A stretch of 50,198 nucleotides of DNA, taken from an uncultured Chthoniobacter sp. (GTDB taxonomy: Bacteria; Verrucomicrobiota; Verrucomicrobiia; Chthoniobacterales; JACTMZ01). The DNA lies in the NCBI GenBank assembly GCA_964545425.1, contig CAZJGQ010000002.1:1-50198 (forward strand), read 5' to 3'. The notes below the pieces were generated by a model, which was not told where the DNA came from, ran no database searches, and saw nothing but the letters and a program-made list of their open reading frames with translations. Each line of letters opens with the position of its first letter. The first letter of the stretch is position 1. Shown here in pieces: positions 5,159 to 19,469 of this stretch. Position numbers and translations under genes: made by a program.

Positions 5159-5482
5159 ATGAAAAAACACCAACATACCTACGCAATCGCCTGCTCTTGG
5201 GCGGACGCCAAGTGCGCATCCACCAACGGCAGCATCAACACCACTGTCAACGCGGCTCATGACGCGGAGGCATTCATCGATCTGGAGACCAAAAAAAATC
5301 CCGTTCTTTCGATCGTGATCCATGCCGCCGATAAAAGCGGTTCTCACATGGTCTGCGCCGACTATGGAAACGGTAAACTCTTGATGGATGTAGCGGCACA
5401 CGACGCCAGCGAACTTCGCTACGCCCTCGATCGTGTCACGGCTCCCTGGTTCACCGGCTCGGACGAGCCGCTTGCCGCCTGA
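5159..5482 (+). CDS. hypothetical protein
   Basis: 107 aa, ATG start, lies in the tightly packed same-strand array. No motif recognised. Confidence 0.45.
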   Translation: MKKHQHTYAIACSWADAKCASTNGSINTTVNAAHDAEAFIDLETKKNPVLSIVIHAADKSGSHMVCADYGNGKLLMDVAAHDASELRYALDRVTAPWFTGSDEPLAA

Positions 5483-5498
5483 TCCGGAGGAAATACCA

Positions 5499-6608
5499 AT
5501 GAACGAAAATATCGTCTGCCCCCAATGCCAAGCCGAGTTTCCCCTCGGCGAAGCCGTCGCCCATCGTCTTCGCGAGCAACTCGCCGCCGACTTCGAAAAG
5601 GAGCGCGCCAAGCTCAAACAAGCCGGCGCCCGCGAAGCCGCGGAGCAACTCTCGGTGCAAATGAAGGATCTTCAGTCGCAAATCGAGGCGCAAAAAAACC
5701 GCCTCAAAGCCGCCGAAGACAACGAACTCGAATTGCGCAAACAAAAGCGCGAGTTGCAGGACGCGAAAGACGCCATGCAGCTCGAGGTCGAACGCAAGCT
5801 TGAAGCCGAGCGCGCCAAGATCGCTGAAAACGCACGCAAGAACGCCGAGGAAAACGAGAAGCTCAAGCTCCTCGATAAAGAAAATAAAATCAAACAACTC
5901 ACCGAGCAGATCGATATCCTGCAAAAGAAAGCCGCGCAAGGCTCCATGCAGGCGCAGGGCGAAACGCTCGAACTTGAACTCGAGCGCGAATTGAAGGCAG
6001 CCTTCATCCACGATGAAATCGTCGAGGTGAAGAAAGGCGAGCGCGGGGCCGACGTTCGTCAGGCAATTCGCACCAACACCGGTGGCGCCTGCGGCGAGAT
6101 CCTCTGGGAAACCAAGCGCGCCAACGCCTGGAGCGCCAAGTGGATCGCCAAGATCAAAGAAGATCAACGCCACGTCAAAGCCGACCTCGCCGTCATTGTC
6201 ACGACGTGCCCGCCCGACGGCTTGCGTGGTTTCGGTGCGCACGAAGGCGTATGGGTCTGCGAGCCCGGCTATGCCGTGGCCCTCGCCGCCGCTTTGCGTC
6301 AGGGAATCGTCAGCACTGCCGCCCAACGCGTGCAACAAGCCAATCGCGCCGACAACATGTCCATGCTCTACGACTACTTGTGCGGCGTGGAATTCCGCCA
6401 GCATATCGAGGCGCTCGTCGAAACCTTCGTCGCCGCCAAGAAACAAATCGAAAGCGAACGTAAAGCCTTCCACAAAGCGTGGGCCGAACGCGAATCGCAA
6501 CTCACCAAAGCGGTCACTCACACGGCCCTCATTTACGGCGGTATCCAAGGCATCGCCGGTCGCGAGGCTCTGCCCGAGATCGACAGCCTTGCCCTCACCG
6601 CCGCCTAG
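5499..6608 (+). CDS. DUF2130-like protein (Zn-ribbon, long coiled coil, C-terminal nuclease-like domain)
   Basis: ATG at 5499 is preceded by GGAGG. N-terminus is MNENIVCPQCQAEF, followed by a K/E-rich coiled coil. C-terminus is GERGADVRQAI..GEILWETKRANAWSAKWIAKIKEDQ. Confidence 0.75.
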   Translation: MNENIVCPQCQAEFPLGEAVAHRLREQLAADFEKERAKLKQAGAREAAEQLSVQMKDLQSQIEAQKNRLKAAEDNELELRKQKRELQDAKDAMQLEVERKLEAERAKIAENARKNAEENEKLKLLDKENKIKQLTEQIDILQKKAAQGSMQAQGETLELELERELKAAFIHDEIVEVKKGERGADVRQAIRTNTGGACGEILWETKRANAWSAKWIAKIKEDQRHVKADLAVIVTTCPPDGLRGFGAHEGVWVCEPGYAVALAAALRQGIVSTAAQRVQQANRADNMSMLYDYLCGVEFRQHIEALVETFVAAKKQIESERKAFHKAWAERESQLTKAVTHTALIYGGIQGIAGREALPEIDSLALTAA

Positions 6609-6622
6609 AAAGAAACGACACC

Positions 6623-7414
6623 ATGGCTAAAAAGAAACTCAACAAAACGGTAGAAATCCTCGACGCGGCCGCCGCTGTTCTCGCGGCCACCGGCACGCCG
6701 ATGCACTACACCGACCTCGCCGCCGCCGTCGGCGAGCACGACAACTCGATCGTCTTCGGGGCCAAACCCGGACTCGAGGTATACACCGCCATCTACAATG
6801 ACATCAAAGCTGCCCCCGCGTCGCGCTTCGCCAAAGCCGGGAGAGGGGAGTTCTTCCTCTCCGGTGTCGAACCTGCCGAGGAAACGACAGCGGATGCGCC
6901 CGGCGTGCCTTCCCACGCTGCCGGTTTCATCCAGGCCTTCGGCATGTATTGGCAGAGGAATCAGGTCGATTGGAAGAACCAGCCTTCGCTGCACGGCAAC
7001 CAGCAACGCGGTGCGCAGAACGTCGACTTCGGCGGACAAAAAGGTGTCTACCTTCTGCACGATGGACGCCACGTCGTCTACGTCGGACGCACCACGGATC
7101 AGACCATGGGCCAACGCCTCTTCCAGCACACCTATGATCGGCTCAACGGCCGCTGGGATCGCTTCTCTTGGTTCGGCGTCTTGCCCGTGAATGAAGACGG
7201 TTCGCTCGGCCAAGCCGCCGGGGCCGGCTTCGGCATCGACGACCTCATCTCGGCCATGGAGGCCCTGCTTATCGAGGCCGTCGAGCCGCCGCAGAATCGT
7301 CGTCGCGGCGACCAGACCGCCGCGGTCGAATACCTCCAGGCCGAGGACCCGGCCTTGAAAAACAAACAAGCCAAAGCCCTTGTCTCCGAGGTTCTGGCCA
7401 AACTAGAAAGATGA
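6623..7414 (+). CDS. HARE-HTH domain protein with a C-terminal GIY-YIG-like nuclease module
   Basis: N-terminus ILDAAAAVLAATGTPMHYTDLAAAV..EVYTAIYNDIK..RFAKAGRGEFFL is HARE-HTH-like. C-terminus GVYLLHDGRHVVYVGRT..RLFQH..EALLIEAVEPPQNRR is GIY-YIG-like. Confidence 0.7.
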   Translation: MAKKKLNKTVEILDAAAAVLAATGTPMHYTDLAAAVGEHDNSIVFGAKPGLEVYTAIYNDIKAAPASRFAKAGRGEFFLSGVEPAEETTADAPGVPSHAAGFIQAFGMYWQRNQVDWKNQPSLHGNQQRGAQNVDFGGQKGVYLLHDGRHVVYVGRTTDQTMGQRLFQHTYDRLNGRWDRFSWFGVLPVNEDGSLGQAAGAGFGIDDLISAMEALLIEAVEPPQNRRRGDQTAAVEYLQAEDPALKNKQAKALVSEVLAKLER

Positions 7415-7421
7415 TTCCCCC

Positions 7422-8639
7422 ATGCCCCTCGACATCCAGCTAGTTCACCCTTTCGACAAGGCGCACGAGCATCATATGTGGGAGTCGCTTTGCGAGTCCA
7501 TGTTTGCCGCTTTCAAAGACCTTCCCGGCAAGGCCCTTCTGCTCGGCAATTTTAACTGCGGCCGCCAGATCGACGCCTGTCTCGTCACGGGTCGCGGTCT
7601 TGCGGTGATCGAACTCAAGAACTACTCCGGCCAGCTTCACGCTCCGCCCAACGAGCGATGGTTCGCGGGCACCAGCCCGGTGCACGCGGGCGGCGCGCTC
7701 AATCCTTTGGAGCAAATGCGCGGTGCCAAACATGCCATCGTCGATCGTTTGCGTCGTCCTTGGTCGTACAAGTTTCCCGACATGCCGCCGCCCAACTGGA
7801 AATACTCGGCCTGCCGCGCGGTATTCAACCCGGGAACCGAATGGGTCGATCTGCTCGATCCCGGCGTGCACCGTTGGTTCAAGATCTCGACCCTCGACGC
7901 CATCGCGTCCGAACTGCGCTCGCTGTCCATCGACACCTTCGACCTGTCCGCGGCCCAGATCGATTTCGTTCGCAAGACCATCCTCTCCATTGCGCCGCGC
8001 CGCATCGTGCACAAAGAGCAGAAAGAAATCATGGCAAACGGATTGCAGGGCATCACCGTCGGCCACCTCACGCTCGGGTCCAAGGTGGCCGTCACCCACG
8101 GCACAGCGGCGAGCATGGACAAACAAAACAAAAATCCCGTCCCTGCCGTCTTCCATGATTACACGGTGGCCGATGAGGATGGCTTCGTGCTTCACCTCAA
8201 AGACATGTGTCTGGAAAACGGTGAGCGCCACATTTTTGCCGGCGACAATTTCAGCGGCGAAAAAAAGTGGGACCGTCTCCAAGAGGGGATGCGTCTCGGT
8301 GTTTACCCTCGCGACGGCGGCGTCCTCACAAGGCTCGCCCTGGCCCGTCCCAATGAAGGAAAGGGCAAGAAGAGCACCCGTGGTCGCTCGGCCACCCGCG
8401 AGCAACTGGACGAGGCGGCGGGTCTCGACGTCTTCCAGACTCTTCTTGATCTGGGCGCCCTCAAGGTGGGCACACGAGCCGAGGTTTACGGAGAGACCAA
8501 CAGAGAACGCAACACGCTTTGCGTTCTCTACCCCACAGACAAACCCGAGATCGGCCTCGTGGCCTACATCCTCACCACCATCTTCCCGCTCATGCAAGAC
8601 GAGGAAGAGGAGTCCGGTGTGCAAACGGCCGCCGCCTGA
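7422..8639 (+). CDS. NERD domain protein
   Basis: 405 aa. LLLGNFNCGRQIDACLVTGRGLAVIELKNYSG..NPLEQMRGAKHAIVDRL. Confidence 0.75.
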   Translation: MPLDIQLVHPFDKAHEHHMWESLCESMFAAFKDLPGKALLLGNFNCGRQIDACLVTGRGLAVIELKNYSGQLHAPPNERWFAGTSPVHAGGALNPLEQMRGAKHAIVDRLRRPWSYKFPDMPPPNWKYSACRAVFNPGTEWVDLLDPGVHRWFKISTLDAIASELRSLSIDTFDLSAAQIDFVRKTILSIAPRRIVHKEQKEIMANGLQGITVGHLTLGSKVAVTHGTAASMDKQNKNPVPAVFHDYTVADEDGFVLHLKDMCLENGERHIFAGDNFSGEKKWDRLQEGMRLGVYPRDGGVLTRLALARPNEGKGKKSTRGRSATREQLDEAAGLDVFQTLLDLGALKVGTRAEVYGETNRERNTLCVLYPTDKPEIGLVAYILTTIFPLMQDEEEESGVQTAAA

Positions 8640-8651
8640 TCCGCCGCACTT

Positions 8652-8894
8652 ATGAACTCCGAAACCAAAGTTATCTTTTCGACCAAAGGCCAGGTCATCA
8701 TCCCGAAGAAAATCCGCACCAAACTCGGGATCGAGGAAGGAACCGAAGCCCTTGTCACCGAGGAGAATGGCCGGATTTGTTTGCAGCCGATCAATGCGGC
8801 CTACATCGCCGGATTGCGCGGCCGGCTTGGCGGTGTCGAACTCGTCGAGACCCTCGAGGCCGAACGCGCCAAGGAAAGGAAACCCGGCGCATGA
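8652..8894 (+). CDS. AbrB/MazE/SpoVT-family antitoxin
   Basis: 80 aa. STKGQVIIPKKIRTKLGIEEGTEALV is a swapped-hairpin motif. The stop overlaps the next ATG (ATGA). Confidence 0.85.
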   Translation: MNSETKVIFSTKGQVIIPKKIRTKLGIEEGTEALVTEENGRICLQPINAAYIAGLRGRLGGVELVETLEAERAKERKPGA

Positions 8895-9334
8895 AGGGCA
8901 ACCGGGTCTTGGACACGTGGGCACTGCTCGCCTTCTTTCAGGGGCACGGCAGTGCCGCCGCACAGGTCGAGAAAATCCTCAACTCCGCACTCGGCTCGAA
9001 CCGTCGCGTCTTTTTGCACGGTGTAAGCTGGACAGAGCTCTACGCCACGATCGAGGGCAAGCTGGGCGACCCTGCGGCCGCGGAGGCGGTGGCTGTCCTC
9101 GATCGTCTTCCCATCGTCCTTGTCGGCACGGAGGACCGCGAGGTCTGCCGCCAAGCCGCCTGGCACAAAACGGCGTTCGATCTCACCCTCGGCGCCAGCT
9201 TTGCCGCCGGCTTGGCCGCAGTGAAAAAAGCGCCCCTAGTGACCGGAGACCCCCAGTTTCTTCGCCTGGCCGGTGATATGACACTCCACTGGCTTGGCGA
9301 TCCGGCGCTCGTGGCTGAAAATTCCCCGCAATGA
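8891..9334 (+). CDS. PIN-domain toxin (VapC-like)
   Basis: ATG at 8891. RVLDTWALLAFF..SWTELY..GASFAAGLAAVKKAPLVTGDPQF. The stop overlaps the ATG of the DUF262 gene (ATGA at 9331-9334). Confidence 0.75.
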   Translation: MKGNRVLDTWALLAFFQGHGSAAAQVEKILNSALGSNRRVFLHGVSWTELYATIEGKLGDPAAAEAVAVLDRLPIVLVGTEDREVCRQAAWHKTAFDLTLGASFAAGLAAVKKAPLVTGDPQFLRLAGDMTLHWLGDPALVAENSPQ

Positions 9335-10953
9335 CCGCCGCCCTCAAACAACCCGAGAACCACTCGAAGAAATACTCGGTGCTCTTTGCCGATATCGACG
9401 CGGGGCGCACAAAGTTGCCCCGATTTCAACGTGACTTCGTCTGGGACAAGGCGCAGACCGCCAAGCTCATCGACAGCATCTTGAAGGGTTTTCCGGTCGG
9501 CACTTTCATCATCTGGAAGACGCGCGACCGCTTCCGCCATTTCCGCGAGCTGGGCAACTTGCCTCTTCCCGAGCCGCCGGCGGGGGACTCTGTGCAATAT
9601 GTCCTCGACGGCCAGCAGCGCATCACTTCCCTCTACGCCGTGCGCAAAGGCCTGCGCATCACCCGCGACGGCCGCGTCATCGACTACAAGGACATCTGCA
9701 TCGACCTCGACGCCCCCGGCGGTCCGGAAGAGGAAATCGTCCACGCCGACGCCCCGGCCGGCCGCCGCACAATCTCGGTGCACGACCTGCTCTCGATGGA
9801 TGTCACCGACTTCGACGCCTACAGCAAAGCCGAGCGCCGCAAAATCCACGAATACCGCGCCGCGCTCACCGGCCACGACTTCTCCGTCATCGAGATCCCC
9901 GAATACGACATCGACACCGCCTGCGAGATTTTCACCCGCATCAATACCGGCGGCAAAGAGCTGTCGCTCTTCGAAATCATGGTCGCCAAGACCTTCGACC
10001 CGGAATCCGGTTTCGATCTCGAGCGCAAATACCTCGATCTGGTCGACGGCGATGACGGCGGCAAGAGTCTCATCGACGCCAGCTTCGAGACCATTCCCGC
10101 CATCACTATCCTGCAGTGTATCGCTGCCCACCTCAAAGGCGGCATCCGCCACGGCGACATCCTGCGCCTCGACCGCCAGGCCGTCATCGAGTGCTGGCCT
10201 CATGTGAAAGAGACCATCTTTGCCGCCATCGACCACATGCAGTCCCATCTGGGCGTCGCCGTCTCCCGCATCCTCCCGTATCCGGTGCTGCTCGTCGCCT
10301 TCAGCAACTTCTTCGACCGCAACAAGCTCAAGCCGGCCGGCCACGACCAGACCCGCTACCTCGCCGAATATTTTTATCGCGCGGGACTCAGCAACCGCTA
10401 CACGTCTGGCGTCGCTGTCAAAATGGTCGCCGATTTGCAGAAGATGAAGTCCATCGCCCAGGGGAAACGTCCATCCTACAAAGGGGAGGATCTCGAGATT
10501 ACCCCCGACACCTTCCGGACAAAGACCTTCGCCATCAACGACGCCTTCTCCAAGACCGTCCTGTGTCTGCTTGCTGCGAAAGGTCCGCGCAATCTGCAGA
10601 CCAACGGCCTCATCAAGCTCAACAACTCCTGGCTGCGCAAATCCTCCAGCCGCAACATCCATCACATATTCCCGAAGGCATGGATCAAGAAGCACGGCAA
10701 ACCTGACTGGGATGCCAATGTTATCGCGAACATCATGATCGCTGACGAATATTTGAACCAAAGAGTGATCAAGGCGTCTGCACCAAAGGATTGGGTAGGC
10801 CAATTCTCGCATAAGAGCGCGACTCTCGAGGAAAGTTTCCTCACACACCTGATTGGAAGCGAGGAACTGGAGGCGTTGCGGAGCAACTCCTACCCCAGGT
10901 TCGTAGCAGCACGTTCTAAAGCTTTTTTCGAAGCGATAGCGATCGCTCTCTAA
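9331..10953 (+). CDS. DUF262 (ParB-like nuclease) plus DUF1524 (HNH-like) protein, GmrSD/SspE/BrxU-like architecture
   Basis: N-terminus LPRFQRDFVWDKAQTAKLIDSILKGFPVGTFIIW..YVLDGQQRITSL. C-terminus NIHHIFPKAWIKK. Confidence 0.85.
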   Translation: MTAALKQPENHSKKYSVLFADIDAGRTKLPRFQRDFVWDKAQTAKLIDSILKGFPVGTFIIWKTRDRFRHFRELGNLPLPEPPAGDSVQYVLDGQQRITSLYAVRKGLRITRDGRVIDYKDICIDLDAPGGPEEEIVHADAPAGRRTISVHDLLSMDVTDFDAYSKAERRKIHEYRAALTGHDFSVIEIPEYDIDTACEIFTRINTGGKELSLFEIMVAKTFDPESGFDLERKYLDLVDGDDGGKSLIDASFETIPAITILQCIAAHLKGGIRHGDILRLDRQAVIECWPHVKETIFAAIDHMQSHLGVAVSRILPYPVLLVAFSNFFDRNKLKPAGHDQTRYLAEYFYRAGLSNRYTSGVAVKMVADLQKMKSIAQGKRPSYKGEDLEITPDTFRTKTFAINDAFSKTVLCLLAAKGPRNLQTNGLIKLNNSWLRKSSSRNIHHIFPKAWIKKHGKPDWDANVIANIMIADEYLNQRVIKASAPKDWVGQFSHKSATLEESFLTHLIGSEELEALRSNSYPRFVAARSKAFFEAIAIAL

Positions 10954-10958
10954 AAAGT

Positions 10959-13406
10959 ATGCACATGAGCAAACGTTTATCGGGCGGAAATTACAGGGGC
11001 AGACGTCACTCAAGTGCACCAAGTAGTCCGGCTGAAGATCGTATTTTTATACCAATGGCAGAACGTGGTAGGTCGGTAGCTTCTGTTGCGCTATCGGTTC
11101 GCTTGAGCAACGTCTTGGAAAAAGGAAATATCCGAATTTTAGGGGACTTAAATGGACTCAACTTTAAGGACATAATCAGATATACTAACTGCGGGCAAAA
11201 AACGGCAAGTGAACTACGAGAAGTAGTCCGGAAAGTGCAACAAGGAACTACCGAGACTATGCCAAGCCTTGCTGCTGTTGAGCCTGCAAATGAGTTAGCT
11301 TTTCGCGTTCCGTTATCGGCACGAAAGTTTCTTTTGTCTGATCTACCAATTTCCTCCCGTCTCGAAACAGTTTTGCGGCGCTGCGGGTTCAGCAAACTAG
11401 GCGACATCGACGGTGTTGAATTCAACTACTTGCTTCGTCGCCAGGGTTGCGGAAAGAAATGCATCCAGGAACTACAGGAACTACTCAAGCGATCTGGTTC
11501 AGGTGAATTCACACCGGTAGATACCGCCGATTTTTCCGCTGTTCTCCAACAGGTTGCCGCTTCTATTGATTCCGGTTTAGCCAAACTTGCGCACAGAGAC
11601 AGGGAGATATTTGAATCACGTATAAGTGGGAACAATGGCGGCCCACGAACGCTAGAGGAAATTGCACAGGAATTTGCCATGACGCGAGAACGCGTCCGTC
11701 AGATAACGAAAAAGAGCTTTCAGACAATCCGGCGGAGCGGTGGCCTGAAGCTGAAAAGTGCCTTGCAGTCCTTAGTTAGAGAATGCGAGCAGTGCGTCTG
11801 CCCTTTGACACCAGATTTGTTCACGAAATGGACGGGGCCAACGGTTGCCAGCAAGCATGACTCTCATTTTTATGTCCGGGTGCTCGACACGATGGACGCA
11901 TCCGTGCCCGCGTGGCCTGGCGGCTCAACACGCGAAGGGGGAGATGAAAGTCGGTCGCTAGAAATTCAAACTGCCGTCGAATTGTGGATGCGGAAAACAG
12001 GAATGAACCCAACTGCATCCGAAGCCTACTCTTACCTGAGGAAGCATTCGGCTTTTAGAAAGCTGTCTGTTGCAGCATTTCTGGCTGCAATTCGCGTTCC
12101 CAAACGATTCATCATTGATTTCCCCGAGCCTGACCGTCCGCAGTTCCGGTTGCGTCGTTTACGTATTTCAGATTTCGCGCGACCGATCTTAGAGGCAAGT
12201 GATGTGCCGCTGACGCCTGAGGAAATTATTGAGCGCGCCAAAGCTCGATATGGGCACAGTTTGATTATACATGCAGGTCGCAGTGCAGGTAATGCCTTGC
12301 TGGGCGAAGAGGGGATATACCTGCTGGGACCCCGAGCACTGGGCATGCGAAAGCACTTTAAGACCCCAGCCAAAGTGTGGCCCTCACTTCGAAAAATCTT
12401 CGCAAACACACTAAAGATACAAAACCGTCCGGTTTCGACGACCGAAGCTGTTTGCCTCCCTGAAATAGCGCGCTTCCACATTACAAATGCTCACGAGATG
12501 GCTGCCATTCTCAGGGAGGACAAACGATTTGTGGACCTTGGTCGGCACCTCTTCGGACTCGCCAAATGGGGCTTACAAGAACGCGAGCATATTAAAGACC
12601 TTTTACCGGGTGTTTTCGAACAGGCGAAGCGAGTGCTCAAGATCGATCAGGCTTTGGAAAAGCTGACGCGCCTGCGTTCAGTTTCACCGAGCAGCATTGC
12701 GAACTACCTCAAGAATCACCCTGAGATCCGTTCCTTTGGCTTCGGATACTATGGCCTCACGAAATGGGGGAACGAAGAGCGATCCGTCATTTTAGCAGAC
12801 CGGAAGACAGTAGAACGAGCAATCCGCCGGGGGCCGCAGCCCATCAGTTTCCAAGCATTGTGCCAAACTTTTTCAATCAATGTGTCCGGCAGGCAGGCGG
12901 ATCTCTTATGGAAAAGCTGTCAGGGGTCCCCTAAGTTGCGTCGAGCCCCCGACAAGCAGGCTCCCGACACGCTTCTGCTGCACAAATCTGTTTCGCTTGA
13001 GCAATCGCTGGCCAACATCTCGCGCGATTTAAAACGGCCAATGGCAGCGTATGAGTTGGAGTGGGAACTGAGGTCGAGATACGGCGATCTTTTCGCCTCG
13101 ATAGGACTTAAAGAAATCGAGCAGAAACTTGCAAAAAGCGATTGGTTCCTGCGTGACTCCGCCGGCCAATTCTTTTTGGACGAAGACTTCAACAACGAAG
13201 ACTTTAATCCTGAAGCTATCCGAGCTGCCGTCACAAATTCGCTTATTGAATCAATGGATGTCGCGGGATGTGATGAGCTGATTGAGAGACTCGAGTTATC
13301 TGGCTTTGAGGTGGACGATTTGTCCCAAGACATGCTAGCATCAATTCTTCGCGGAGCAGCCGGTCTTCAAGAAGTTGCGAATCAGAGATTCCGTGCACGC
13401 CAATGA
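10959..13406 (+). CDS. RNAP-module mimic: two alpha-CTD-like HhH modules, sigma-70 region-4 HTH and repeated winged-helix (HARE-HTH-like) modules
   Basis: LSVRLSNVLEKGNIRILGDL..NCGQKTASELREVV and ISSRLETVLRRCGFSKLGDI..GCGKKCIQELQELL are alpha-CTD-like. TLEEIAQEFAMTRERVRQITKKSFQTIRR is sigma region 4.2-like. Four or more ..GLAKWG/GLTKWG-type wH repeats follow. The start could be a downstream Met. Confidence 0.8.
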   Translation: MHMSKRLSGGNYRGRRHSSAPSSPAEDRIFIPMAERGRSVASVALSVRLSNVLEKGNIRILGDLNGLNFKDIIRYTNCGQKTASELREVVRKVQQGTTETMPSLAAVEPANELAFRVPLSARKFLLSDLPISSRLETVLRRCGFSKLGDIDGVEFNYLLRRQGCGKKCIQELQELLKRSGSGEFTPVDTADFSAVLQQVAASIDSGLAKLAHRDREIFESRISGNNGGPRTLEEIAQEFAMTRERVRQITKKSFQTIRRSGGLKLKSALQSLVRECEQCVCPLTPDLFTKWTGPTVASKHDSHFYVRVLDTMDASVPAWPGGSTREGGDESRSLEIQTAVELWMRKTGMNPTASEAYSYLRKHSAFRKLSVAAFLAAIRVPKRFIIDFPEPDRPQFRLRRLRISDFARPILEASDVPLTPEEIIERAKARYGHSLIIHAGRSAGNALLGEEGIYLLGPRALGMRKHFKTPAKVWPSLRKIFANTLKIQNRPVSTTEAVCLPEIARFHITNAHEMAAILREDKRFVDLGRHLFGLAKWGLQEREHIKDLLPGVFEQAKRVLKIDQALEKLTRLRSVSPSSIANYLKNHPEIRSFGFGYYGLTKWGNEERSVILADRKTVERAIRRGPQPISFQALCQTFSINVSGRQADLLWKSCQGSPKLRRAPDKQAPDTLLLHKSVSLEQSLANISRDLKRPMAAYELEWELRSRYGDLFASIGLKEIEQKLAKSDWFLRDSAGQFFLDEDFNNEDFNPEAIRAAVTNSLIESMDVAGCDELIERLELSGFEVDDLSQDMLASILRGAAGLQEVANQRFRARQ

Positions 13407-13984
13407 AAGCTGTAACCAAACCCGAGAAAATCCTGGTGGTTATGTTTGACCTGTCAAAAGGAGAACCGAAGCCACTGCTTTACGAAGATATAGTTGTTGC
13501 GGCTTTCAGGCGGTATCCCGAAGATTTTCAGCTTCGTGGATATCCGGAATACCCGGATTCGTCTGATATCCACAAGCCCCTGTACAAAATGAAGCGCAAC
13601 GGATTGGTTCGTTCCGCGAACAAATCCTTCATGCTGACTCCAATGGGAATCGGTGTTGCTCAGGGCTTGGTAGGCGCATCGGAACCGACCGGCAACCGCT
13701 TGACCAAACCCGAAGAGAATGAGATTAACCGCATTTCTCAATCTCAGGCATTCCGGCTCTTTCAGGAGGGCCACAAGTCCAAAATCCTCGATACCGATTT
13801 CTACGACTACCTGGGAGTGAGCGTGCGGACGCCAAAAGGAGATTTCCTGGGTCGTGTTGCCACTGTTAGCCAGGCGGTGGAGGCCCATGGTGCTAAGCGC
13901 AACGACAAACTTTCAGAGGCCCTCGCCAGATTGCACGAGTGGATCCTCGGCCACTTTCAGGAAGAAATTCAAGCTAGGAGATAA
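13403..13984 (+). CDS. hypothetical protein (possible winged helix)
   Basis: 193 aa. ATGA overlap with the upstream stop; ends 2 nt before the next ATG. Confidence 0.55.
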   Translation: MKAVTKPEKILVVMFDLSKGEPKPLLYEDIVVAAFRRYPEDFQLRGYPEYPDSSDIHKPLYKMKRNGLVRSANKSFMLTPMGIGVAQGLVGASEPTGNRLTKPEENEINRISQSQAFRLFQEGHKSKILDTDFYDYLGVSVRTPKGDFLGRVATVSQAVEAHGAKRNDKLSEALARLHEWILGHFQEEIQARR

Positions 13985-13986
13985 CC

Positions 13987-15768
13987 ATGCCAATTAAAGT
14001 TCAACCTTTCGTCATAGACGTAGCCGTTCTCGACCTTATCGGTAAGGAGTTTCGTTTCGACCACGCCAAAGGCCTCGCGGAGTGGCTCAAAAACTCGAGT
14101 GACGCATATTTGCGTCAAAGCGTGCCGGATGCTGATCAGCACATCATTGTGCGGTTCTGTGAGGCTGGTAGGGCACTCACGCGGATTGAATGCATCGATT
14201 TCGTCGGCATGAAGAAAAGCCACATTGACGATGCACTCAAGCGATTCTTCGATCCCGAAGCTGCCAAGAAGGGTTCCAAACAAGCCAATCTGAAAACACT
14301 AGGTGGCCATGGAAACGGAGGGAAGTTTTACATGCGCCAAATGTTTAAGTCCTCTAAGGCCATGACATATCGAGATGGCCGCATGAACATTTTTGGCTTC
14401 AACGAAAAGAAGCAATACGGCTTCGAAGAGGGCTTTGAAGATAAAAAAATGCCCCTAGCTGACGCGCTGAAACTGGCTGGCCTTGACAAGCTCAAACTTC
14501 CGAAAGGCGTGCTCGACCAATTGAAGGCAGGGGAAACCGGCTTCACTGTGATTGTCGGCGACAAGCCGGTGAAAACTAAAGGCACCAGCAGCCTAAAGGA
14601 GCTTTGCGACAAACTTATTTCGCATCCACAAGCTAGGAGACTTATTGGCCGAAAGCCTGTGCACGTCCTTTGTAATGAGGAATCCGAACTGACGAGGTTA
14701 ACAGTTCCCAAACTTGAGCCGAAAGAGGGATTCGAGCAGCCAATCGTTATTGAGATCCCCAGCGAATTGAATCACCAAGGCGAGACAGTTCACTTCGTGA
14801 ACAAGGATTACTCGTATCCCGGCCGTCTTGTCCTTAAAACGTCCAAGGAACCGCTGCGTGCGGCCTTGGGATCACTCAATACGATCGACTTCTTAGGCGA
14901 GGTAGGTGTCATCGGCACTTATAAAATCCATGAATTGGGCGCTACACGTTTTTCCGGACAGGTTGAATTCATCTACGGCGAGTGTGAGTGCCCTATCTTG
15001 GAAGATCCTGAACACGACTCAGTCGCTAACGACCGGCAAAAACTCCATCCCACTGATCGTGCACAAGCTTTGCTCGAATGGGTTCGAGAACAGGTGGAAG
15101 AACTTGCGGAGAAAATGGAGACAAAGAACAAGCAGGACAGCAAGTCGCAAGATCTGAAGAATACCTCGGCATTAAATGAGCTGCTAAACCGTTGGAAAGA
15201 CAGGTTCATGAATCAGGTCTGGGCTGATATGTTTTCCGGCCAGGGGCCCTCTGGCACCTCGGGCAGCGGAGGCAGTGGAGGAGGAGGCGGTGGTGGCGGC
15301 GGTGGCGGTGGAGGTGGAGGCGGTGGAGGCGGCGGCGAGGAAGGCGGCAGCGATAAAATCAAAAAACCGAGATTTCCTCAGGTGCTCATTTCGGGCCAGG
15401 ACAATGATCCGCTGGACCCGATGGCCACGATTCCGTTTAATTGCGATCCACGCCATCCGGCGGTGTATCAGCGCACGAAAGACGTCGCCGCCGGCATCTA
15501 TTGGATCAATACTTCCAGACCTCTTGCTGAAAAGGTCATCAAAGAATACACGGCCGATTCAGCACGTTGGCGGGAATATCTTTTTCAGCGCTACGTGGAG
15601 ATCATCTCAAAGGAAGGCATTTACCAGCTGGGTAAATTGAACACGACACTGTCGGCTGATGACGTAATTCGCCGCATTGATGAGGTCACCACCAAAGTTC
15701 ACGATCAGGCAGCTCAAGATCTGAGCTCCTTTTTGTTCCAAGAGTCTCTTCAGGCGGATGCTCGATGA
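13987..15768 (+). CDS. GHKL (Bergerat-fold, MORC/MutL-like) ATPase with an internal poly-Gly linker
   Basis: N-box GLAEWLKNSSDAY, G1-like IDFVGM, G2-like LGGHGNGGKFYM. AGGAG lies 8 nt upstream of the ATG. A C-terminal domain follows the Gly tract. Confidence 0.75.
   Translation: MPIKVQPFVIDVAVLDLIGKEFRFDHAKGLAEWLKNSSDAYLRQSVPDADQHIIVRFCEAGRALTRIECIDFVGMKKSHIDDALKRFFDPEAAKKGSKQANLKTLGGHGNGGKFYMRQMFKSSKAMTYRDGRMNIFGFNEKKQYGFEEGFEDKKMPLADALKLAGLDKLKLPKGVLDQLKAGETGFTVIVGDKPVKTKGTSSLKELCDKLISHPQARRLIGRKPVHVLCNEESELTRLTVPKLEPKEGFEQPIVIEIPSELNHQGETVHFVNKDYSYPGRLVLKTSKEPLRAALGSLNTIDFLGEVGVIGTYKIHELGATRFSGQVEFIYGECECPILEDPEHDSVANDRQKLHPTDRAQALLEWVREQVEELAEKMETKNKQDSKSQDLKNTSALNELLNRWKDRFMNQVWADMFSGQGPSGTSGSGGSGGGGGGGGGGGGGGGGGGGGEEGGSDKIKKPRFPQVLISGQDNDPLDPMATIPFNCDPRHPAVYQRTKDVAAGIYWINTSRPLAEKVIKEYTADSARWREYLFQRYVEIISKEGIYQLGKLNTTLSADDVIRRIDEVTTKVHDQAAQDLSSFLFQESLQADAR
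15263..15350 (+). repeat. Imperfect GGN trinucleotide tract encoding SGSGGSGGGGGGGGGGGGGGGGGGGGEEGGS
   Basis: Read directly from the sequence; mixed GGA/GGC/GGT codons. Confidence 0.9.
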
Positions 15769-16919
15769 CCAAGGAGTTTTCGGTAGTCGATTTATTTGCA
15801 GGCGTTGGCGGATTTTCCCAGGGATTTATCCGTGTAAATCGAAGGAATTTGGACTTTGGTTTCGCGTTGAAGCTACTGGTCGATTCCGACCCGACAGCTG
15901 GATACACATTTAAGAAAAACTTCCCGCGCGTTCCGTATTGGACAAAAGACATTGGCAAGTTGACCGCGGACGAACTTCTCGGCGTCCTGAAAATGCAGGT
16001 TGGTGAGCTGGATTTTTTGATTGGTGGGCCTCCGTGCCAGGGCTTTTCCCCAAACGGCAAAAGATGGTTGGAAGACGAGCGCAACACGCTTTTCTCGCAG
16101 TTTATAAATCTGGGCCTGTTTTTGCAGCCGAAGGTTGTGATTTTGGAAAATGTGCCTGCTGCTCTGGCTGTTTATGAAACAATTGCTAACAGTCAGATCC
16201 AGGAGGTATTCCGAGGCTATAATGTTCGCTCCGAAACGTTAAACGCTACTGCTTTTGGAGTTCCCCAAATTCGTAAACGCACATTTATCGTCGCTATCCG
16301 CGAGGACCTCGGTATTAATGAGTTTGATTACCCTGCCGGAAAGTTTGACCCGCTCGAGGTCGGTTGCGAATCACATAACATCTCAAGAGCGGATCATTAT
16401 TTCGTGTCGGTCCGCGATGCAATCGGTGACCTCCCGTCGCTGTCAGCCGGCCAATCAGTTGATGGCTCTTTATACGCAGTCGCTCCTCAGTCCGAATATC
16501 AAACCGAGAGGCGCGCAAGATCCCTGGCAATCTTTAATCACGTGGCTCGGTCGCATTCCGAGAAATTCCAGAGGAAGCTTTCATCCATCCGCCCAGGCAC
16601 GGGCAATGCCCACTTACCAAAAGGTGAGAGGTTCTCGGATAACTACTTTAGCCAAGCATATGCTCGTTTGCACCCTGAAGGTGTTGGCTTCACCATAACA
16701 GCCAATTTTCGTAATCCTGGATCGGGTCGTTTTACTCACTATCAGGATGATCGCTCTATTACAGTCCGCGAAGCGGCACGACTCCAGTCATTCGACGATG
16801 CGTTTATTTTTTATGGCTACGAAACCGATCAGCAGCGCCATGTAGGAAACGCTGTCCCGCCACTCTTGGCTGAAGCGCTCGCGGAGCACTTCGGCAAAGT
16901 GTTATATTCTCATCTTTGA
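15765..16919 (+). CDS. dcm: DNA (cytosine-5)-methyltransferase
   Basis: Motif I DLFAGVGGFSQGF, motif IV GGPPCQGFS, ENV, QIRKRTFIV, TVREAARLQSFDD, GNAVPPLLAEAL. ATGA overlap with the GHKL gene. Confidence 0.95.
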   Translation: MTKEFSVVDLFAGVGGFSQGFIRVNRRNLDFGFALKLLVDSDPTAGYTFKKNFPRVPYWTKDIGKLTADELLGVLKMQVGELDFLIGGPPCQGFSPNGKRWLEDERNTLFSQFINLGLFLQPKVVILENVPAALAVYETIANSQIQEVFRGYNVRSETLNATAFGVPQIRKRTFIVAIREDLGINEFDYPAGKFDPLEVGCESHNISRADHYFVSVRDAIGDLPSLSAGQSVDGSLYAVAPQSEYQTERRARSLAIFNHVARSHSEKFQRKLSSIRPGTGNAHLPKGERFSDNYFSQAYARLHPEGVGFTITANFRNPGSGRFTHYQDDRSITVREAARLQSFDDAFIFYGYETDQQRHVGNAVPPLLAEALAEHFGKVLYSHL

Positions 16920-16925
16920 TTGCCA

Positions 16926-19010
16926 TCAAATGGGCCACTCGGAACAATGCTCGGCACCGAGATCCGCGGCGCCGCACTCAATTAAAAACTGGTAAGTGGT
17001 GTCGTAAAATTCGGGAGCTCTGGTCTCATCCTCTCCACTTCGGCTGCCCCTCGGCACAAATATTACCAAGCCTTTGCGCGCTCTCGTAAGTATCACTCGA
17101 TAGCCGTTTTTAGCCACCTTGCACAGCTTGTCATTCGCCCATTTGGACCCGCTGATTTTGTAAGCTTTCCATTCACCGTTTTCGTAACGCAGATCTGCAT
17201 CCCAGCAGACTATGCAGAAGTCCAGCTCCAGGCCCTGCACCTGGTATTGGTTCTGCACAACCTCCAGAGCGTTGGATGATCTGATGTCGCTTGTCGGTGC
17301 TAACATCCAGGTTGCGATGTCCGGCTTGAAATCAACAAAGAGCCCCTCAGCGGCCAAGCGTTTCGCCTGACCCGATGCAATTATACCCGAGCGCAGACCT
17401 CCAACGCAGTTGTTTCGCGCCCACTCCTTGGCAGTCGATAGCGATCTTGTTATCCATACGGTATGACCCTTCTGCCGCATTTCCGCAGCGATGTCTTTGG
17501 CGTCTTTCGATCTGCAAGAAAGAACGGCATCTACCCACTCTTCGAGTCGCTCATTCCTGTAGTAGCGCATAGAACTCGATAAGTGACCCGTTCGCATAAG
17601 GCTCCGCGTGGGGTGCTTTTCCCACTTTGAGCGATCAGTTATCTCAGCCAGAGCGAGGGTTTCGTCACTGATTGAAAAGGACCATCCCTTGCGCTCGATC
17701 GCCTCAAGCCACGCCCGGATCCCCATCTCACCGCGGTTGATGGCTTGATTGTGCCCGACTAAAGCCACGATCACCGATCCGCCTGAGGGGAATGAGCGGC
17801 GCTGTGCTTCCAATATCAGGTCTGCTTCGTGGTCGCTGAGTTGCTCGCGAAGGACTACCCGCCCTTTCTCGTATGTGCGTTGAGCTTCGTCAAAGACGAG
17901 CACGCGCCCGTCAGTTTGTTCGTGCTGAGTGCCACGCTGGCCAAGGAAGCGATGCGCCTTGACCAGTTTATAAGTCGAGGCACCAACCACCAGTGCAGCG
18001 TCTTTTCGGCGGTAGCCTGTTGGAGCCCATTTGCTCTGAGAGGCACTTTGTGAACGAAATGATCCGTGCAGAGCCTTCGTCAAAACATCAACCAACGGTG
18101 TATTTCCAGTGACGAACACCGCATTTGAAGCGTGTTCGCCACGCATCACAAGATCCAGTCCAACAAGCGTTTTGCCGGCGCCTGGCGCACCGGACAGAAA
18201 TACAACACGGTATTCACCTTTCTTTAGAGACCCATCAATAATTCTCCGTATCTCATTGGTCGCGCTTTGAATCTGCTCCTTCGGGGCAGCATGCTCTTGG
18301 ATTGCGGAGACATCATGATTTCCGTAGAGCGATAGAGTTGCATCCAGAATCGAAGACGATGGCCTAAAAGGGGAAGCCATCCATCGATCAAAACTGATGA
18401 CTTTGCTGGAGCGGCGTTTTTCGCGCGCCAATTTCAAAGCTTCAGCCAAACTGTGGCCGTCGCACTCTAGAGGGGCATTTACCAGGGCATTCCAGCTTCT
18501 GTCGCCGTGCCCGGGCCATTCCAAGCGTCTGCGATGCTTGCCCTCCGTCTGAACAAGAACGGGAACAACAAGAACTCCTGCGTCACCATCGCAAATGCGC
18601 TGCGTCTCCTCGTGAAACTCCAGAAGGTTGACAGCGTAGGTCATCACCTGATCACGGTCTGCCCCCTGTGGTTTGTTTCGTTTGAATTCCGTGACGAAGA
18701 TTAATCCATCTCCTAGCAGAAGGCAGTCCATCCGTAGGCCGCGCCGACGAAAGTCGTATTCTAAAATAACATGCGTGATGCCTTTGCCGGCCTCGGTTGC
18801 GAGTGCCTCCCGGAGGATCGGTATGCGGTTGCCCAGTGCGTTCTGCAAAAGGCCAATACTTTTTTTCCATTCCTCACTTTGTGCGGCCTCAATTTCGAGG
18901 CTCTCGGATGCCGCTCTTCCAGCAAGCTGGTTTGTGATCGCCTCATCCGACAGAGCGAGGAAGGCTTCTCGGGTATCCGCAAACCAAGCTGGGGACTTTC
19001 CTCTCGGCAT
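16926..19010 (-). CDS. DUF2075/Schlafen-like P-loop ATPase-helicase with an N-terminal PD-(D/E)xK-like module
   Basis: VILEYDF..RMDCLLLGDGLIFVTEFK is nuclease-like. Walker A is LSGAPGAGKT, Walker B is VLVFDEAQR, and the C-terminus is YRVILTRARKGLVIFVP. Confidence 0.8.
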   Translation of the reverse strand: MPRGKSPAWFADTREAFLALSDEAITNQLAGRAASESLEIEAAQSEEWKKSIGLLQNALGNRIPILREALATEAGKGITHVILEYDFRRRGLRMDCLLLGDGLIFVTEFKRNKPQGADRDQVMTYAVNLLEFHEETQRICDGDAGVLVVPVLVQTEGKHRRRLEWPGHGDRSWNALVNAPLECDGHSLAEALKLAREKRRSSKVISFDRWMASPFRPSSSILDATLSLYGNHDVSAIQEHAAPKEQIQSATNEIRRIIDGSLKKGEYRVVFLSGAPGAGKTLVGLDLVMRGEHASNAVFVTGNTPLVDVLTKALHGSFRSQSASQSKWAPTGYRRKDAALVVGASTYKLVKAHRFLGQRGTQHEQTDGRVLVFDEAQRTYEKGRVVLREQLSDHEADLILEAQRRSFPSGGSVIVALVGHNQAINRGEMGIRAWLEAIERKGWSFSISDETLALAEITDRSKWEKHPTRSLMRTGHLSSSMRYYRNERLEEWVDAVLSCRSKDAKDIAAEMRQKGHTVWITRSLSTAKEWARNNCVGGLRSGIIASGQAKRLAAEGLFVDFKPDIATWMLAPTSDIRSSNALEVVQNQYQVQGLELDFCIVCWDADLRYENGEWKAYKISGSKWANDKLCKVAKNGYRVILTRARKGLVIFVPRGSRSGEDETRAPEFYDTTYQFLIECGAADLGAEHCSEWPI

Positions 19011-19058: not shown

Positions 19059-19469
19059 ATGACAGATATCTGGACCAAAAAGAAGCGCTCCGAAGGCATG
19101 TCCCTCATCCGGGGCAAGGGCAACAAGGAGACGGAGAATGCGCTACTCGCGCTGCTGAGGCAAAACAAGATCATCGGCTGGAGAAGGCATCTTCCTTTGC
19201 CCGGAAAGCCCGACTTTGCCTTTCCCAGTCACAAAGTCGCCGTCTTCGTCGACGGTTGCTTCTGGCACGGCTGCCCCAAGTGCTACACCCGCCCGAAAAC
19301 CAACCGGAAGTTCTGGGACAAAAAGCGCGCTGACAACATGGCTCGCGATCTCCGCGTCACCCGCAAACTCCGCCGCCAAGGCTGGAAAGTCATCCGCATC
19401 TGGCAACACTCCCTCCAAAAATCGCCCTCCACCTGCCTCAATCGAATCCGCCACACGCTACAGGTCTAG
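19059..19469 (+). CDS. vsr: Very-short-patch repair endonuclease
   Basis: The internal ATG at 19059 gives 136 aa: KPDFAFPSHKVAVFVDGCFWHGCPKCY..NRKFWDKK..RD..L..GWKVIRIWQH. Confidence 0.9.
   Translation: MTDIWTKKKRSEGMSLIRGKGNKETENALLALLRQNKIIGWRRHLPLPGKPDFAFPSHKVAVFVDGCFWHGCPKCYTRPKTNRKFWDKKRADNMARDLRVTRKLRRQGWKVIRIWQHSLQKSPSTCLNRIRHTLQV

Follow-up and report, generated by a model that had tools for sequence, protein, structure and literature searches.

Organization and conservation of the g2–g5 genes

The window analysed here is a stretch of 50,198 nucleotides from an uncultured Chthoniobacter sp. of the Verrucomicrobiota (GenBank assembly GCA_964545425.1, contig CAZJGQ010000002.1, positions 1 to 50,198). 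Its region 9331–16919 carries five open reading frames (ORFs) on the + strand, designated g1 to g5. The g1 gene (9331–10953) codes for a 540-aa GmrSD/BrxU-family DUF262 protein, g2 (10959–13406) for an 815-aa sigma/alpha-like protein, a putative scaffold, g3 (13403–13984) for a small winged-helix protein of 193 aa, g4 (13987–15768) for a 593-aa ATPase with GHKL and S5 domains and g5 (15765–16919) for a 384-aa C5 cytosine DNA methyltransferase (Dcm, PF00145). Comparison of related loci indicates that g2–g5 constitute a conserved, widespread, uncharacterised and horizontally mobile cassette, probably a methylation-linked defence or restriction-modification (R-M)-like module, and that g1 lies outside its core.

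The five ORFs were found exactly where the initial annotation had placed them, and all the junctions and motifs that it quoted are present in the DNA and in the translations. The g1 gene ends with TAA, followed by a 5 nt spacer and the ATG of g2 at 10959, g2 and g3 share an ATGA overlap (13403–13406), g3 ends with TAA located 2 nt upstream of the ATG of g4 at 13987 and g4 and g5 again overlap by ATGA (15765–15768). The two junctions preceding g1, MazE/PIN (8891) and PIN/g1 (9331), are ATGA overlaps as well. Because these genes overlap in the same manner and g1 is unrelated to them, tight junctions alone define no functional unit here. A promoter and terminator scan returned signals below chance expectation. 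In the deposited record the g2 gene call (P0241, 715 aa) starts 100 codons later and leaves out 10959–11258, thus dropping the first alpha-CTD-like repeat (C-terminal domain of the RNA polymerase alpha subunit), which is conserved in homologues. Since the homologues of g2 span the full 815 aa and their residues are conserved from approximately position 29 onward, the long start was retained.

A survey of 185,579 species genomes, with one genome per species, revealed 116 relatives, and 80 loci were kept. ORFs were called in these loci and searched with profiles of the window proteins, and the identities of neighbour clusters were checked with Pfam. The 116 relatives, all from metagenome-assembled genomes (MAGs), represented at least ten phyla and comprised Verrucomicrobiota, Acidobacteriota, Planctomycetota, Myxococcota, many lineages of the candidate phyla radiation (CPR), Ignavibacteria, Solirubrobacterales (Actinomycetota), Nitrospirota, Elusimicrobia and Clostridia. 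A scan of viral contigs gave six relatives only.

A small gene preceded the ATPase gene within 120 nt in 74 of the 77 loci with enough flanking sequence, and g3 is an obligate partner of the ATPase g4. Counted up to 3 kb from the ATPase gene, Dcm occurred in 52 of the 80 loci (32 of the 47 with full flanks) and Vsr in 36, in many of them directly after Dcm. Vsr is the usual companion of Dcm; in the window the two are parted by the PDC-S41 gene on the opposite strand. Further neighbours were the sigma-like gene (39 loci, about half), HNH genes belonging to two clusters (17 loci), a PIN gene (13 loci) and a relative of g1 (a single locus). The invariant core consists of the ATPase and the small winged-helix protein, and the sigma-like gene, Vsr, HNH and MazE/PIN are variable extras.

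The order sigma-like gene, 193-aa gene, gene of about 595 aa and Dcm was repeated in loci of Verrucomicrobiota, Acidobacteriota and Brocadiia, the last represented by a Brocadiia MAG. A genome from ENA showed the same cassette order with Vsr next door, and a contig of the Joint Genome Institute (JGI) kept it with a sigma-like protein only 33% identical and with Vsr following. In an 83%-identical relative (L103) the four cassette genes stood alone amid housekeeping genes, and a 50%-identical relative (L001) had only genes of 209 aa and 628 aa and a Dcm-Vsr fusion. Co-occurrence of the winged-helix, GHKL, Dcm and sigma-like genes across unrelated genomes, on which the initial annotation had made its proposal depend, was confirmed by the 80-locus survey and by these individual contexts. 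The gap between the g3 and g4 homologues was mostly −4 to +14 nt, and in 26 loci Dcm lay directly downstream of the ATPase gene on the same strand, with a gap of −4 as the most frequent one. The g3/g4 and g4/g5 couplings are, hence, conserved in relatives.

A divergent subfamily of the ATPase (23–28% identity, 750–830 aa; loci L008, L010 and L105–L108) has one or two Big_2 Ig-like domains replacing the Gly linker. Its representatives gave no NCBIfam match, and Pfam found Big_2 only. The genes are arranged in the order ATPase, homologue of the small protein (hhalign, 98.7%) and then an N6/N4 methylase of one family. A cultured Ensifer adhaerens also encodes this variant on its conjugative plasmid pCTYH.Ch1_3 (NZ_CP118613), at 59460–62548 with the methylase gene at 54211–55464. 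The methylase gene adjoins in L008, L105, L107 and L108; in L106 and on the E. adhaerens plasmid it lies no more than about 4 kb away. The trio of ATPase, winged-helix protein and methylase outlasts both a changed gene order and a changed methylase class. No other observation argues as strongly for an involvement of methylation in the function as the keeping of the trio despite these changes.

Other neighbours of the ATPase gene vary from lineage to lineage. The clusters confirmed by Pfam were PIN, HNH, sigma-r4 with HNH_3, SeqA_N with Mrr_N, a large serine recombinase and an N6_N4 methylase. HNH genes were found directly 3′ of the ATPase gene in L031, L035, L036, L037 and L041 and in L052, L069–L075, L079, L084, L088 and L089. 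Ignavibacteria loci without Dcm encode an HNH-type protein of 127–246 aa, for which Pfam confirmed HNH in the 244-aa member from L031. The CPR loci code for a protein joining sigma-r4 (sometimes together with DnaA_C) and an HNH/zinc-ribbon domain, and in Solirubrobacterales loci a gene for a SeqA_N and Mrr_N protein is located upstream.

Properties of the cassette proteins

No sequence library recognised a GHKL domain in g4. Pfam gave no hit even at E values up to 10, PADLOC v2 gave no match and the sole match in NCBIfam was a weak local one to NF050001 (BbrUII/HgiDII). Clustering of the g4 family yields 1033 groups at 90% identity, none bearing a name other than hypothetical, and 448 representatives when the threshold is 50%. 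Modelled with AlphaFold2 from 27 homologues (mean predicted local distance difference test, pLDDT, of 78), g4 consisted of an N-terminal alpha/beta GHKL part with an S5-like transducer (residues 1–417), a disordered Gly-rich linker (approximately 418–461), in which the poly-Gly run at 15277–15336 encodes residues ~431–450, and a helical C-terminal domain (462–593). Foldseek matched the model with PDB structures of Hsp90/TRAP1, MORC2/3/4 and MutL-LN40 over 410–480 aligned columns (E from 2e-10 to 4e-8, probability 1.0). The N-terminal part and the C-terminal domain searched separately gave no match among PDB sequences, and full-length g4 gave only artefacts of the poly-Gly linker. Recognised by fold only, g4 is predicted to be a GHKL (Bergerat) domain joined to an S5-type transducer.

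In GHKL proteins motif I, ExxxN(xxD), contributes the catalytic Glu and the Mg-binding Asn. The corresponding sequence of g4 is E32-W-L-K-N36-S-S-D39 (EWLKNSSDA), with E32, K35 and N36 invariant across members at 22–60% identity. Motif II, D71-F-V-G74-M, is a DxxG variant of DxGxG, and the ATP lid (motif III) is formed by GGHGNGGK at 106–113, with G109, G111, G112 and K113 invariant. To these residues the family, compared down to 22% identity, adds D71 and G74, the transducer residue R350 and, from the C-terminal domain, P475 and N508; it has no other invariants, W506 being near-invariant. Such a pattern suggests that selection in the g4 family preserves the ATPase site. The GHKL/MORC-like character and the Bergerat motifs ascribed to g4 at first reading were, therefore, borne out by the structure prediction and the motifs. 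No conserved acidic, His or Lys constellation pointing to a nuclease was found in the family, and no nuclease fold was detected by Foldseek. A MutL-like CPHGRP reading of the CDPRHP sequence in the C-terminal domain was rejected, as it is not conserved in the family.

The same proteins could also be arranged as a classical R-M system of the HgiDII type, in which g4 would be the endonuclease with a nuclease in its C-terminal part, Dcm would protect the host and g3 and g2 would serve as specificity or control subunits. R.HgiDII, a REBASE enzyme listed as type IIP, begins with a GHKL domain, has a C-terminal domain without assignment and is paired with a 5-methylcytosine (m5C) methylase (PMC2441816, PMC5867850). 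The translational coupling of g4 with g5 across phyla and the swap of methylase class between subfamilies, as in R-M systems, would be expected of such a pair, and the local match of g4 to NF050001 (E = 5e-4, residues 327–406 only) points in the same direction. This match, however, scored 18.6 bits where the cut-off is 550, and none of the other 14 of 15 diverse members shared it, which ruled out membership of g4 in the HgiDII family. The C-terminal domain, moreover, keeps only P475, N508 and the near-invariant W506, with no acidic/His cluster, and has no match among PDB sequences, and the separate HNH genes of relatives would be redundant if g4 itself cut DNA. An HgiDII-type system is, thus, considered unlikely, and the relation of g4 to R.HgiDII is one of architectural analogy and not membership.

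Within the methylation-linked module favoured here, g4 is accompanied by g3, for which no match was found in Pfam, NCBIfam or PADLOC v2. The 386 homologue clusters of g3 are all annotated as hypothetical. Its AlphaFold2 model (pLDDT 86) showed a winged helix followed by a C-terminal helical bundle, with weak Foldseek matches to the winged helices of MukF-N, PadR and DtxR, in agreement with the small winged-helix protein expected at this position from the initial annotation. No nuclease fold (Foldseek) and no conserved nuclease motif were detected. A catalytic role of the motifs PDSSDIHK and ILDTDFY was ruled out, since they are not kept in the homologue from the Big_2 subfamily. Because the most striking conserved motifs are lost in this divergent homologue, g3 is unlikely to be an enzyme. 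The search of Pfam, NCBIfam and PADLOC v2 also upheld the view that the system is uncharacterised, as g3 and g4 are both absent from the libraries of defence systems, known or candidate.

The occurrence of a constant g3–g4 pair beside varying neighbours (PIN, HNH or Dcm) may also suggest that the pair, with or without g2, is a sensor/regulator steering an adjacent PIN, HNH or methylase operon in a CapK/CapS-like manner, Dcm and Vsr being an orphan pair. A precedent exists in CapK/CapS and VapKSC, in which a GHKL protein and a winged helix-turn-helix (wHTH) protein control adjacent immune genes and a VapC toxin, CapK and CapS both having STAS domains (PMC13373217), and some loci of the cassette have no methylase. 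Such a regulatory role is improbable, however, as the model places g4, with its S5 transducer, in the Hsp90/MORC/MutL type and not among anti-sigma-factor kinases, and g3 has no STAS-like alpha/beta domain. Furthermore, the pair is located upstream of the methylase gene and translationally coupled to it instead of diverging from a promoter, and a methylase is retained in each of two deeply divergent subfamilies. The absence of a STAS-like sheet from the g3 model and the fold of g4, nearest to Hsp90, MORC and MutL and not to the GHKL domain of anti-sigma kinases, ruled out CapK/CapS itself.

As a part of the favoured methylation-linked module, g2 would provide contacts with DNA. Two stretches of g2 matched RNA_pol_A_CTD in Pfam and one region matched Sigma70_r4, and the protein is composed of two alpha-CTD-like helix-hairpin-helix repeats, a sigma-70 region 4 and four or five HARE-HTH-like winged helices, HARE-HTH being detected in its homologues. 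A profile of g2 homologues found region 4 of SigA/RpoD in PDB with E = 8e-15. The double alpha-CTD and sigma region 4 seen initially in g2 are, thus, supported by Pfam, and region 4 also by the PDB match. The recognition helix of g2 reads TRERVRQI in comparison with TRERIRQI in SigA. The first alpha-CTD-like repeat aligns with the RNA polymerase alpha subunit over the stretches "LSVR..N" and "N.G.K(T/S)..E", which we take to be the DNA-contact determinants of alpha-CTD. Both TRERVRQI and these determinants are invariant or nearly so across the g2 family. The modules of g2 appear to keep the residues contacting the UP and −35 promoter elements, which suggests binding to promoters or RNA polymerase. 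No conserved nuclease motif was found in the family alignment. The sigma-like gene is fixed in the clade of the window; it is located upstream in Verrucomicrobiota, Acidobacteriota and Ignavibacteria, and a shorter form lies downstream in CPR.

The g5 protein matched PF00145 with 200 bits (cut-off 22) over profile positions 1–322 of 324 and TIGR00675 with 164 bits (cut-off 100.65). A full-length match to C5 methylases above curated cut-offs confirms its previous identification as Dcm.

The g1 gene and the genomic neighbourhood

The g1 protein matched GmrSD_N (PF03235) with 102.7 bits against a cut-off of 33.2. Its N-terminal DUF262/ParB-like domain bears the DGQQR motif (DGQQRITSL), and the C-terminal part contains the HxxP His-Me-like motif NIHHIFP. 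The C-terminal DUF1524 domain is indicated by the motif only, as Pfam gave no DUF1524 match at E values up to 0.01. The best PADLOC models for g1 were PDC-M55C (E = 2e-45) and HEC-05 (E = 2e-26), and the best solved structure was BrxU (7p9k, E = 1e-11). In the DUF262 N-terminus, the DGQQR motif and the C-terminal HxxP motif g1 resembles the type IV enzymes GmrSD, BrxU and SspE; it differs from them in that its C-terminal domain is undetected by Pfam and in that its nearest PADLOC models are candidates and not characterised enzymes.

The initial annotation had considered g1–g5 a five-part system in which Dcm would mark self DNA, g2 and g4 would act as sensors and the effector nuclease would be g1, the DUF262/DUF1524 protein. 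The conserved cassette of winged-helix, GHKL, Dcm and sigma-like genes was retained from this interpretation, and the role of g1 as the fifth part and effector was not supported. A g1 relative is missing from 79 of the 80 loci, including the closest relatives of the cassette (83–85% identity). The GC content at third codon positions (GC3) is 0.79 for g1 versus 0.51–0.57 (about 0.53) for g2–g5. In 13 related loci the PIN homologue directly adjoins the sigma-like gene, whereas in the window g1 is interposed between PIN and g2. Finally, none of the 12 nearest metagenomic relatives of g1 (47–89% identity) neighbours sigma-like, small or GHKL genes, those at 89% identity having wholly different neighbours, and 8 of the 12 adjoin PDC-M33A/B/C and a different Dcm. 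Because of its presence in one locus only, the deviant GC3, the broken PIN/sigma-like adjacency and the unrelated neighbours of its relatives, g1 was set apart from the cassette. It appears to be a solitary GmrSD/BrxU-type gene for a type IV-like nuclease, inserted between the MazE/PIN pair and g2 and not a part of the cassette core, so that the locus resolves into a four-gene cassette and a separate g1. A lone GmrSD-type gene beside a distinct system is among the outcomes that the initial annotation had itself named as refuting its proposal.

The 5 nt distance between g1 and g2, the contact of the same DUF262 subfamily with a sigma-like gene in one other locus (L050), the repeated proximity of g1 relatives to another Dcm-linked cassette and the known role of GmrSD-type genes as BREX accessories (BrxU, PDB 7p9k) speak for a five-gene system. 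The PIN/g1 coupling is, however, equally tight, and in view of the distribution, GC3 and neighbourhood data given above a five-gene system is very doubtful. It is possible that g1 is a looser accessory or backup of the methylation-linked g2–g5 module, by analogy with BrxU beside BREX.

Apart from the window, L050 is the sole locus where the DUF262 subfamily of g1 touches the cassette. At 11235–13649 it encodes an 804-aa DUF262 protein, 31% identical to full-length g1 and with HHIFP kept, directly after the sigma-like gene of a CPR-type cassette. In L091–L098 the g1 relatives are located beside the PADLOC candidate PDC-M33A/B/C (C = DUF6339) and Dcm, in two gene orders. PDC-M33 with Dcm is a second uncharacterised Dcm-linked cassette recurrently bearing the DUF262 subfamily of g1. 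Homology of g3 or g4 to PDC-M33A/B/C was ruled out (hhalign probability ≤0.3%).

Upstream of g1 the + strand carries a MazE/AbrB-type antitoxin gene (8652–8894; PF04014, E = 6e-9) and a gene for a PIN (VapC-like) toxin (8891–9334; PF01850). PIN homologues were identified directly upstream of the sigma-like gene in the 13 loci mentioned (Ignavibacteria and Verrucomicrobiota; phmmer E from 4e-8 down to 5e-17), with MazE homologues (E from 1e-7 to 2e-13) just upstream of the PIN gene. The MazE/PIN pair is, therefore, a recurrent upstream neighbour, which might regulate the cassette, act as an addiction module or provide it with an alternative effector. Downstream of g5, on the − strand, lies the PDC-S41 gene (16926–19010; DUF2075, Schlafen group 3-type helicase; PADLOC PDC-S41 E = 1e-166, PF09848 E = 4e-53). 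No PDC-S41 homologue was found in the 80 related loci, and this gene is a separate candidate defence gene. It is followed on the + strand by the gene for the Vsr very-short-patch repair endonuclease (19059–19469; PF03852, 58.8 bits; PADLOC Vsr E = 2e-16).

The GC3 of the MazE, PIN and Vsr genes (0.70, 0.74 and 0.77, respectively) is host-like, and for PDC-S41 it equals 0.57. The value steps sharply at the g1/g2 boundary, and the MazE/PIN pair of the window is in this respect unlike g2–g5. The pattern of 10959–19010 relative to its flanks may suggest a replaced middle of an older cassette or a block inserted between the resident PIN/g1 and Vsr.

Further upstream of the cassette, genes for a DUF2130 protein (5433–6608), a HARE-HTH protein (6479–7414) and a NERD-domain protein similar to the PDC-M16A N-terminus (7422–8639) were identified. 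The location of the DUF2130, HARE-HTH and NERD genes and the MazE/PIN pair upstream makes the neighbourhood a defence island, in which NERD, VapBC, GmrSD and PDC-S41 genes lie close together. In relatives the cassette was accompanied by type III R-M and HEPN/MNT genes (L003) or by NOV_C/SIR2 genes (L005), and serine recombinases were found near it. On the other side of the window cassette two consecutive ORFs of 467 aa (19964–21367 and 21402–22805) matched nothing in Pfam. They are non-paralogous (BLASTP E = 1.1), and the second showed a weak coiled-coil-type resemblance to LmuB/JetC models.

Proposed function and comparison with known systems

As established for both families, Dcm methylates host DNA at its own sites, and the T:G damage that then arises by deamination is repaired by Vsr. 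In the proposed mechanism, Vsr would belong with g2–g5, having been displaced downstream by the inserted PDC-S41 gene, and methylation by Dcm would mark self DNA. The sigma/alpha-like protein g2 could bring the complex to duplex DNA by means of its alpha-CTD and sigma-4 modules, its HARE-like winged helices being candidate readers of the modification state. The ATPase g4, presumably a dimer like other GHKL+S5 proteins, would work with the winged-helix adaptor g3, and its ATP-driven closure on unmethylated incoming DNA might block transcription or replication of that DNA. DNA cleavage would not be intrinsic to the core. Some relatives add optional HNH modules, and the window copy has no nuclease add-on except Vsr. 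The behaviour of such a cassette would be closer to that of BREX or a MORC-type silencer than to a classical type II enzyme.

Taken as a whole, the statement that a separate g1 stands beside a g2–g5/Vsr cassette which is methylation-marked, restriction-like and driven by an ATP clamp, with no obvious nuclease in its core, is judged slightly better than even. Within it, a nuclease-free mode has about the same likelihood as one based on a cryptic nuclease. The more specific idea of a nuclease-free immunity, in which the ATPase, the winged-helix adaptor and the methylase, joined by the g2 scaffold in the clade of the window, would locate promoter-like DNA of unmethylated invaders and silence it through ATP clamping or RNA polymerase occlusion, is put forward tentatively and with a low probability.

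Several points weigh against the proposed function. The defence role is deduced from the context. In the 80 loci a crude ORF finder was used to call the neighbouring genes. With no fold assigned to it, the C-terminal domain of g4 might be a nuclease, a situation shared with R.HgiDII (PMC2441816), and for g2 the binding to promoters or RNA polymerase is deduced from conserved residues only. About 10 of the 47 loci with full flanks had neither Dcm nor the HNH clusters (at least one of them, L063, carries an N6_N4 methylase), and several loci of Ignavibacteria/Melioribacter consisted of MazE, PIN, sigma-like, small and ATPase genes only. Because several loci show no methylase, its presence within the examined 6 kb is no strict requirement. 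Finally, g1-type genes repeatedly abut Dcm-linked cassettes (in the window, in L050 and in the PDC-M33 loci), so some functional tie is possible. A mobile module with an epigenetic or chromosome-organising role instead of defence, its ATPase and DNA-binding proteins tuning transcription according to methylation, would agree with the promoter-element-binding determinants of g2, the action of MORC relatives on chromatin and the lack of an evident nuclease in the core, but is highly improbable given the patchy distribution expected from horizontal transfer, the defence-island and mobile-element context and the nuclease add-ons of some relatives.

If the cassette is an active methylation-linked defence system, it would represent a broadly distributed family missed by current detection tools and met in the survey almost only in uncultured lineages. 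It would offer an experimental handle on the GHKL/MORC-type ATPases of restriction-like operons, predicted in 2008, and on the role of sigma/alpha/HARE-HTH chimeric proteins. The three-gene Big_2 variant on pCTYH.Ch1_3 in a cultured E. adhaerens makes such experiments practical. A nuclease-free silencing core, if true, would parallel in prokaryotes the MORC silencing of eukaryotes and, after BREX, provide a second route of that kind to immunity based on methylation; a methylation-gated mechanism of this sort would also be relevant to how eukaryotic MORC silencing arose.

Bacterial proteins combining the RNA polymerase alpha-CTD, sigma region 4 and HARE-HTH have reportedly been described by Aravind and Iyer (2012, Cell Cycle 11:119), and g2 has this architecture. 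A partnership of g2 with the g3–g4 pair was not found in the literature searched. HARE-HTH has been proposed to discriminate DNA modification (PMC3417536, PMC4738411). The sigma-4 part of g2 resembles MzaA (NCBIfam NF041931, E = 2e-11, 43.4 bits against a cut-off of 800; PADLOC MzaA, E = 4e-5). The MZA system was ruled out, as the match is limited to the sigma-4 region, MzaB–E equivalents are absent and g3, g4 and g5 match no Mza model in PADLOC.

MADS comprises mad1–8, with mad6–8 mandatory, and performs type I-like N6-methyladenine (m6A) methylation of a bipartite site (bioRxiv 10.1101/2023.03.30.534895). It was ruled out because of this type of methylation and because the six proteins compared in PADLOC (g1–g5 and the PDC-S41 product) match no mad model. 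BREX is closer in concept, being methylase-linked, multi-protein and ATPase-containing, with no obligatory nuclease, and is often accompanied by the GmrSD-type BrxU. The modules of g2 recall PglW, in which an alpha-CTD-like domain precedes a wHTH array, BrxL having a sigma-HTH-like domain (PMC12839542). The cassette differs from BREX in having a C5 and not an N6A methylase and a GHKL and not an AAA+ ATPase. The PADLOC search found no homologues of PglZ, BrxC, PglX or BrxL and only a weak match of g2 to PglW (E = 4e-4), which ruled out BREX itself.

The GHKL-S5 ATPases of the MORC and paraMORC1–5 families were placed in predicted R-M-like operons by Iyer, Abhiman and Aravind in 2008 (PMC2292703). 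These operons contain genes for cytosine methylases and for Vsr-type endonucleases, in some cases HNH genes as well, and ~70% of MORC neighbourhoods have a superfamily II (SF-II) helicase partner. Among these families only the paraMORC3/Shedu type has been tested (PMC12137116). Akin to MORC and paraMORC, g4 has N-terminal GHKL and S5 parts, intact ATP motifs and a family-specific C-terminal extension, and the cassette shares with their operons the cytosine methylases, Vsr-type endonucleases, occasional HNH and a patchy spread suggestive of lateral transfer. In contrast, g4 is not seen by Pfam HATPase_c_3 or any other sequence model, no HATPase_c_3/MORC signature of the MORC family proper being found in Pfam (E up to 10) or among PDB sequences, and the cassette has no SF-II helicase partner. 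An obligate small winged-helix partner, as g4 has in g3, and a sigma/alpha-like partner are not mentioned in the considered parts of PMC2292703. The published descriptions also argue against paraMORC2 and paraMORC3: the ExxxH candidate of g4 for the former (E339...H343) is not conserved, and no E-D-ExK motif was found in the g4 family alignment. Shedu/paraMORC3 (VcSduA) was ruled out because g4 lacks the DUF4263 PD-(D/E)xK domain required for that type.

R.HgiDII and R.BbrUII are comparable to g4 in size (~600–660 aa), in the N-terminal GHKL domain, in a C-terminal domain without a known fold and in the C5 methylase neighbour. The cassette differs from them by its extra genes (g3 and often g2). 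The cassette, absent from current detection libraries, joins the theme of R-M-like systems containing GHKL ATPases, to which paraMORC and R.HgiDII belong.

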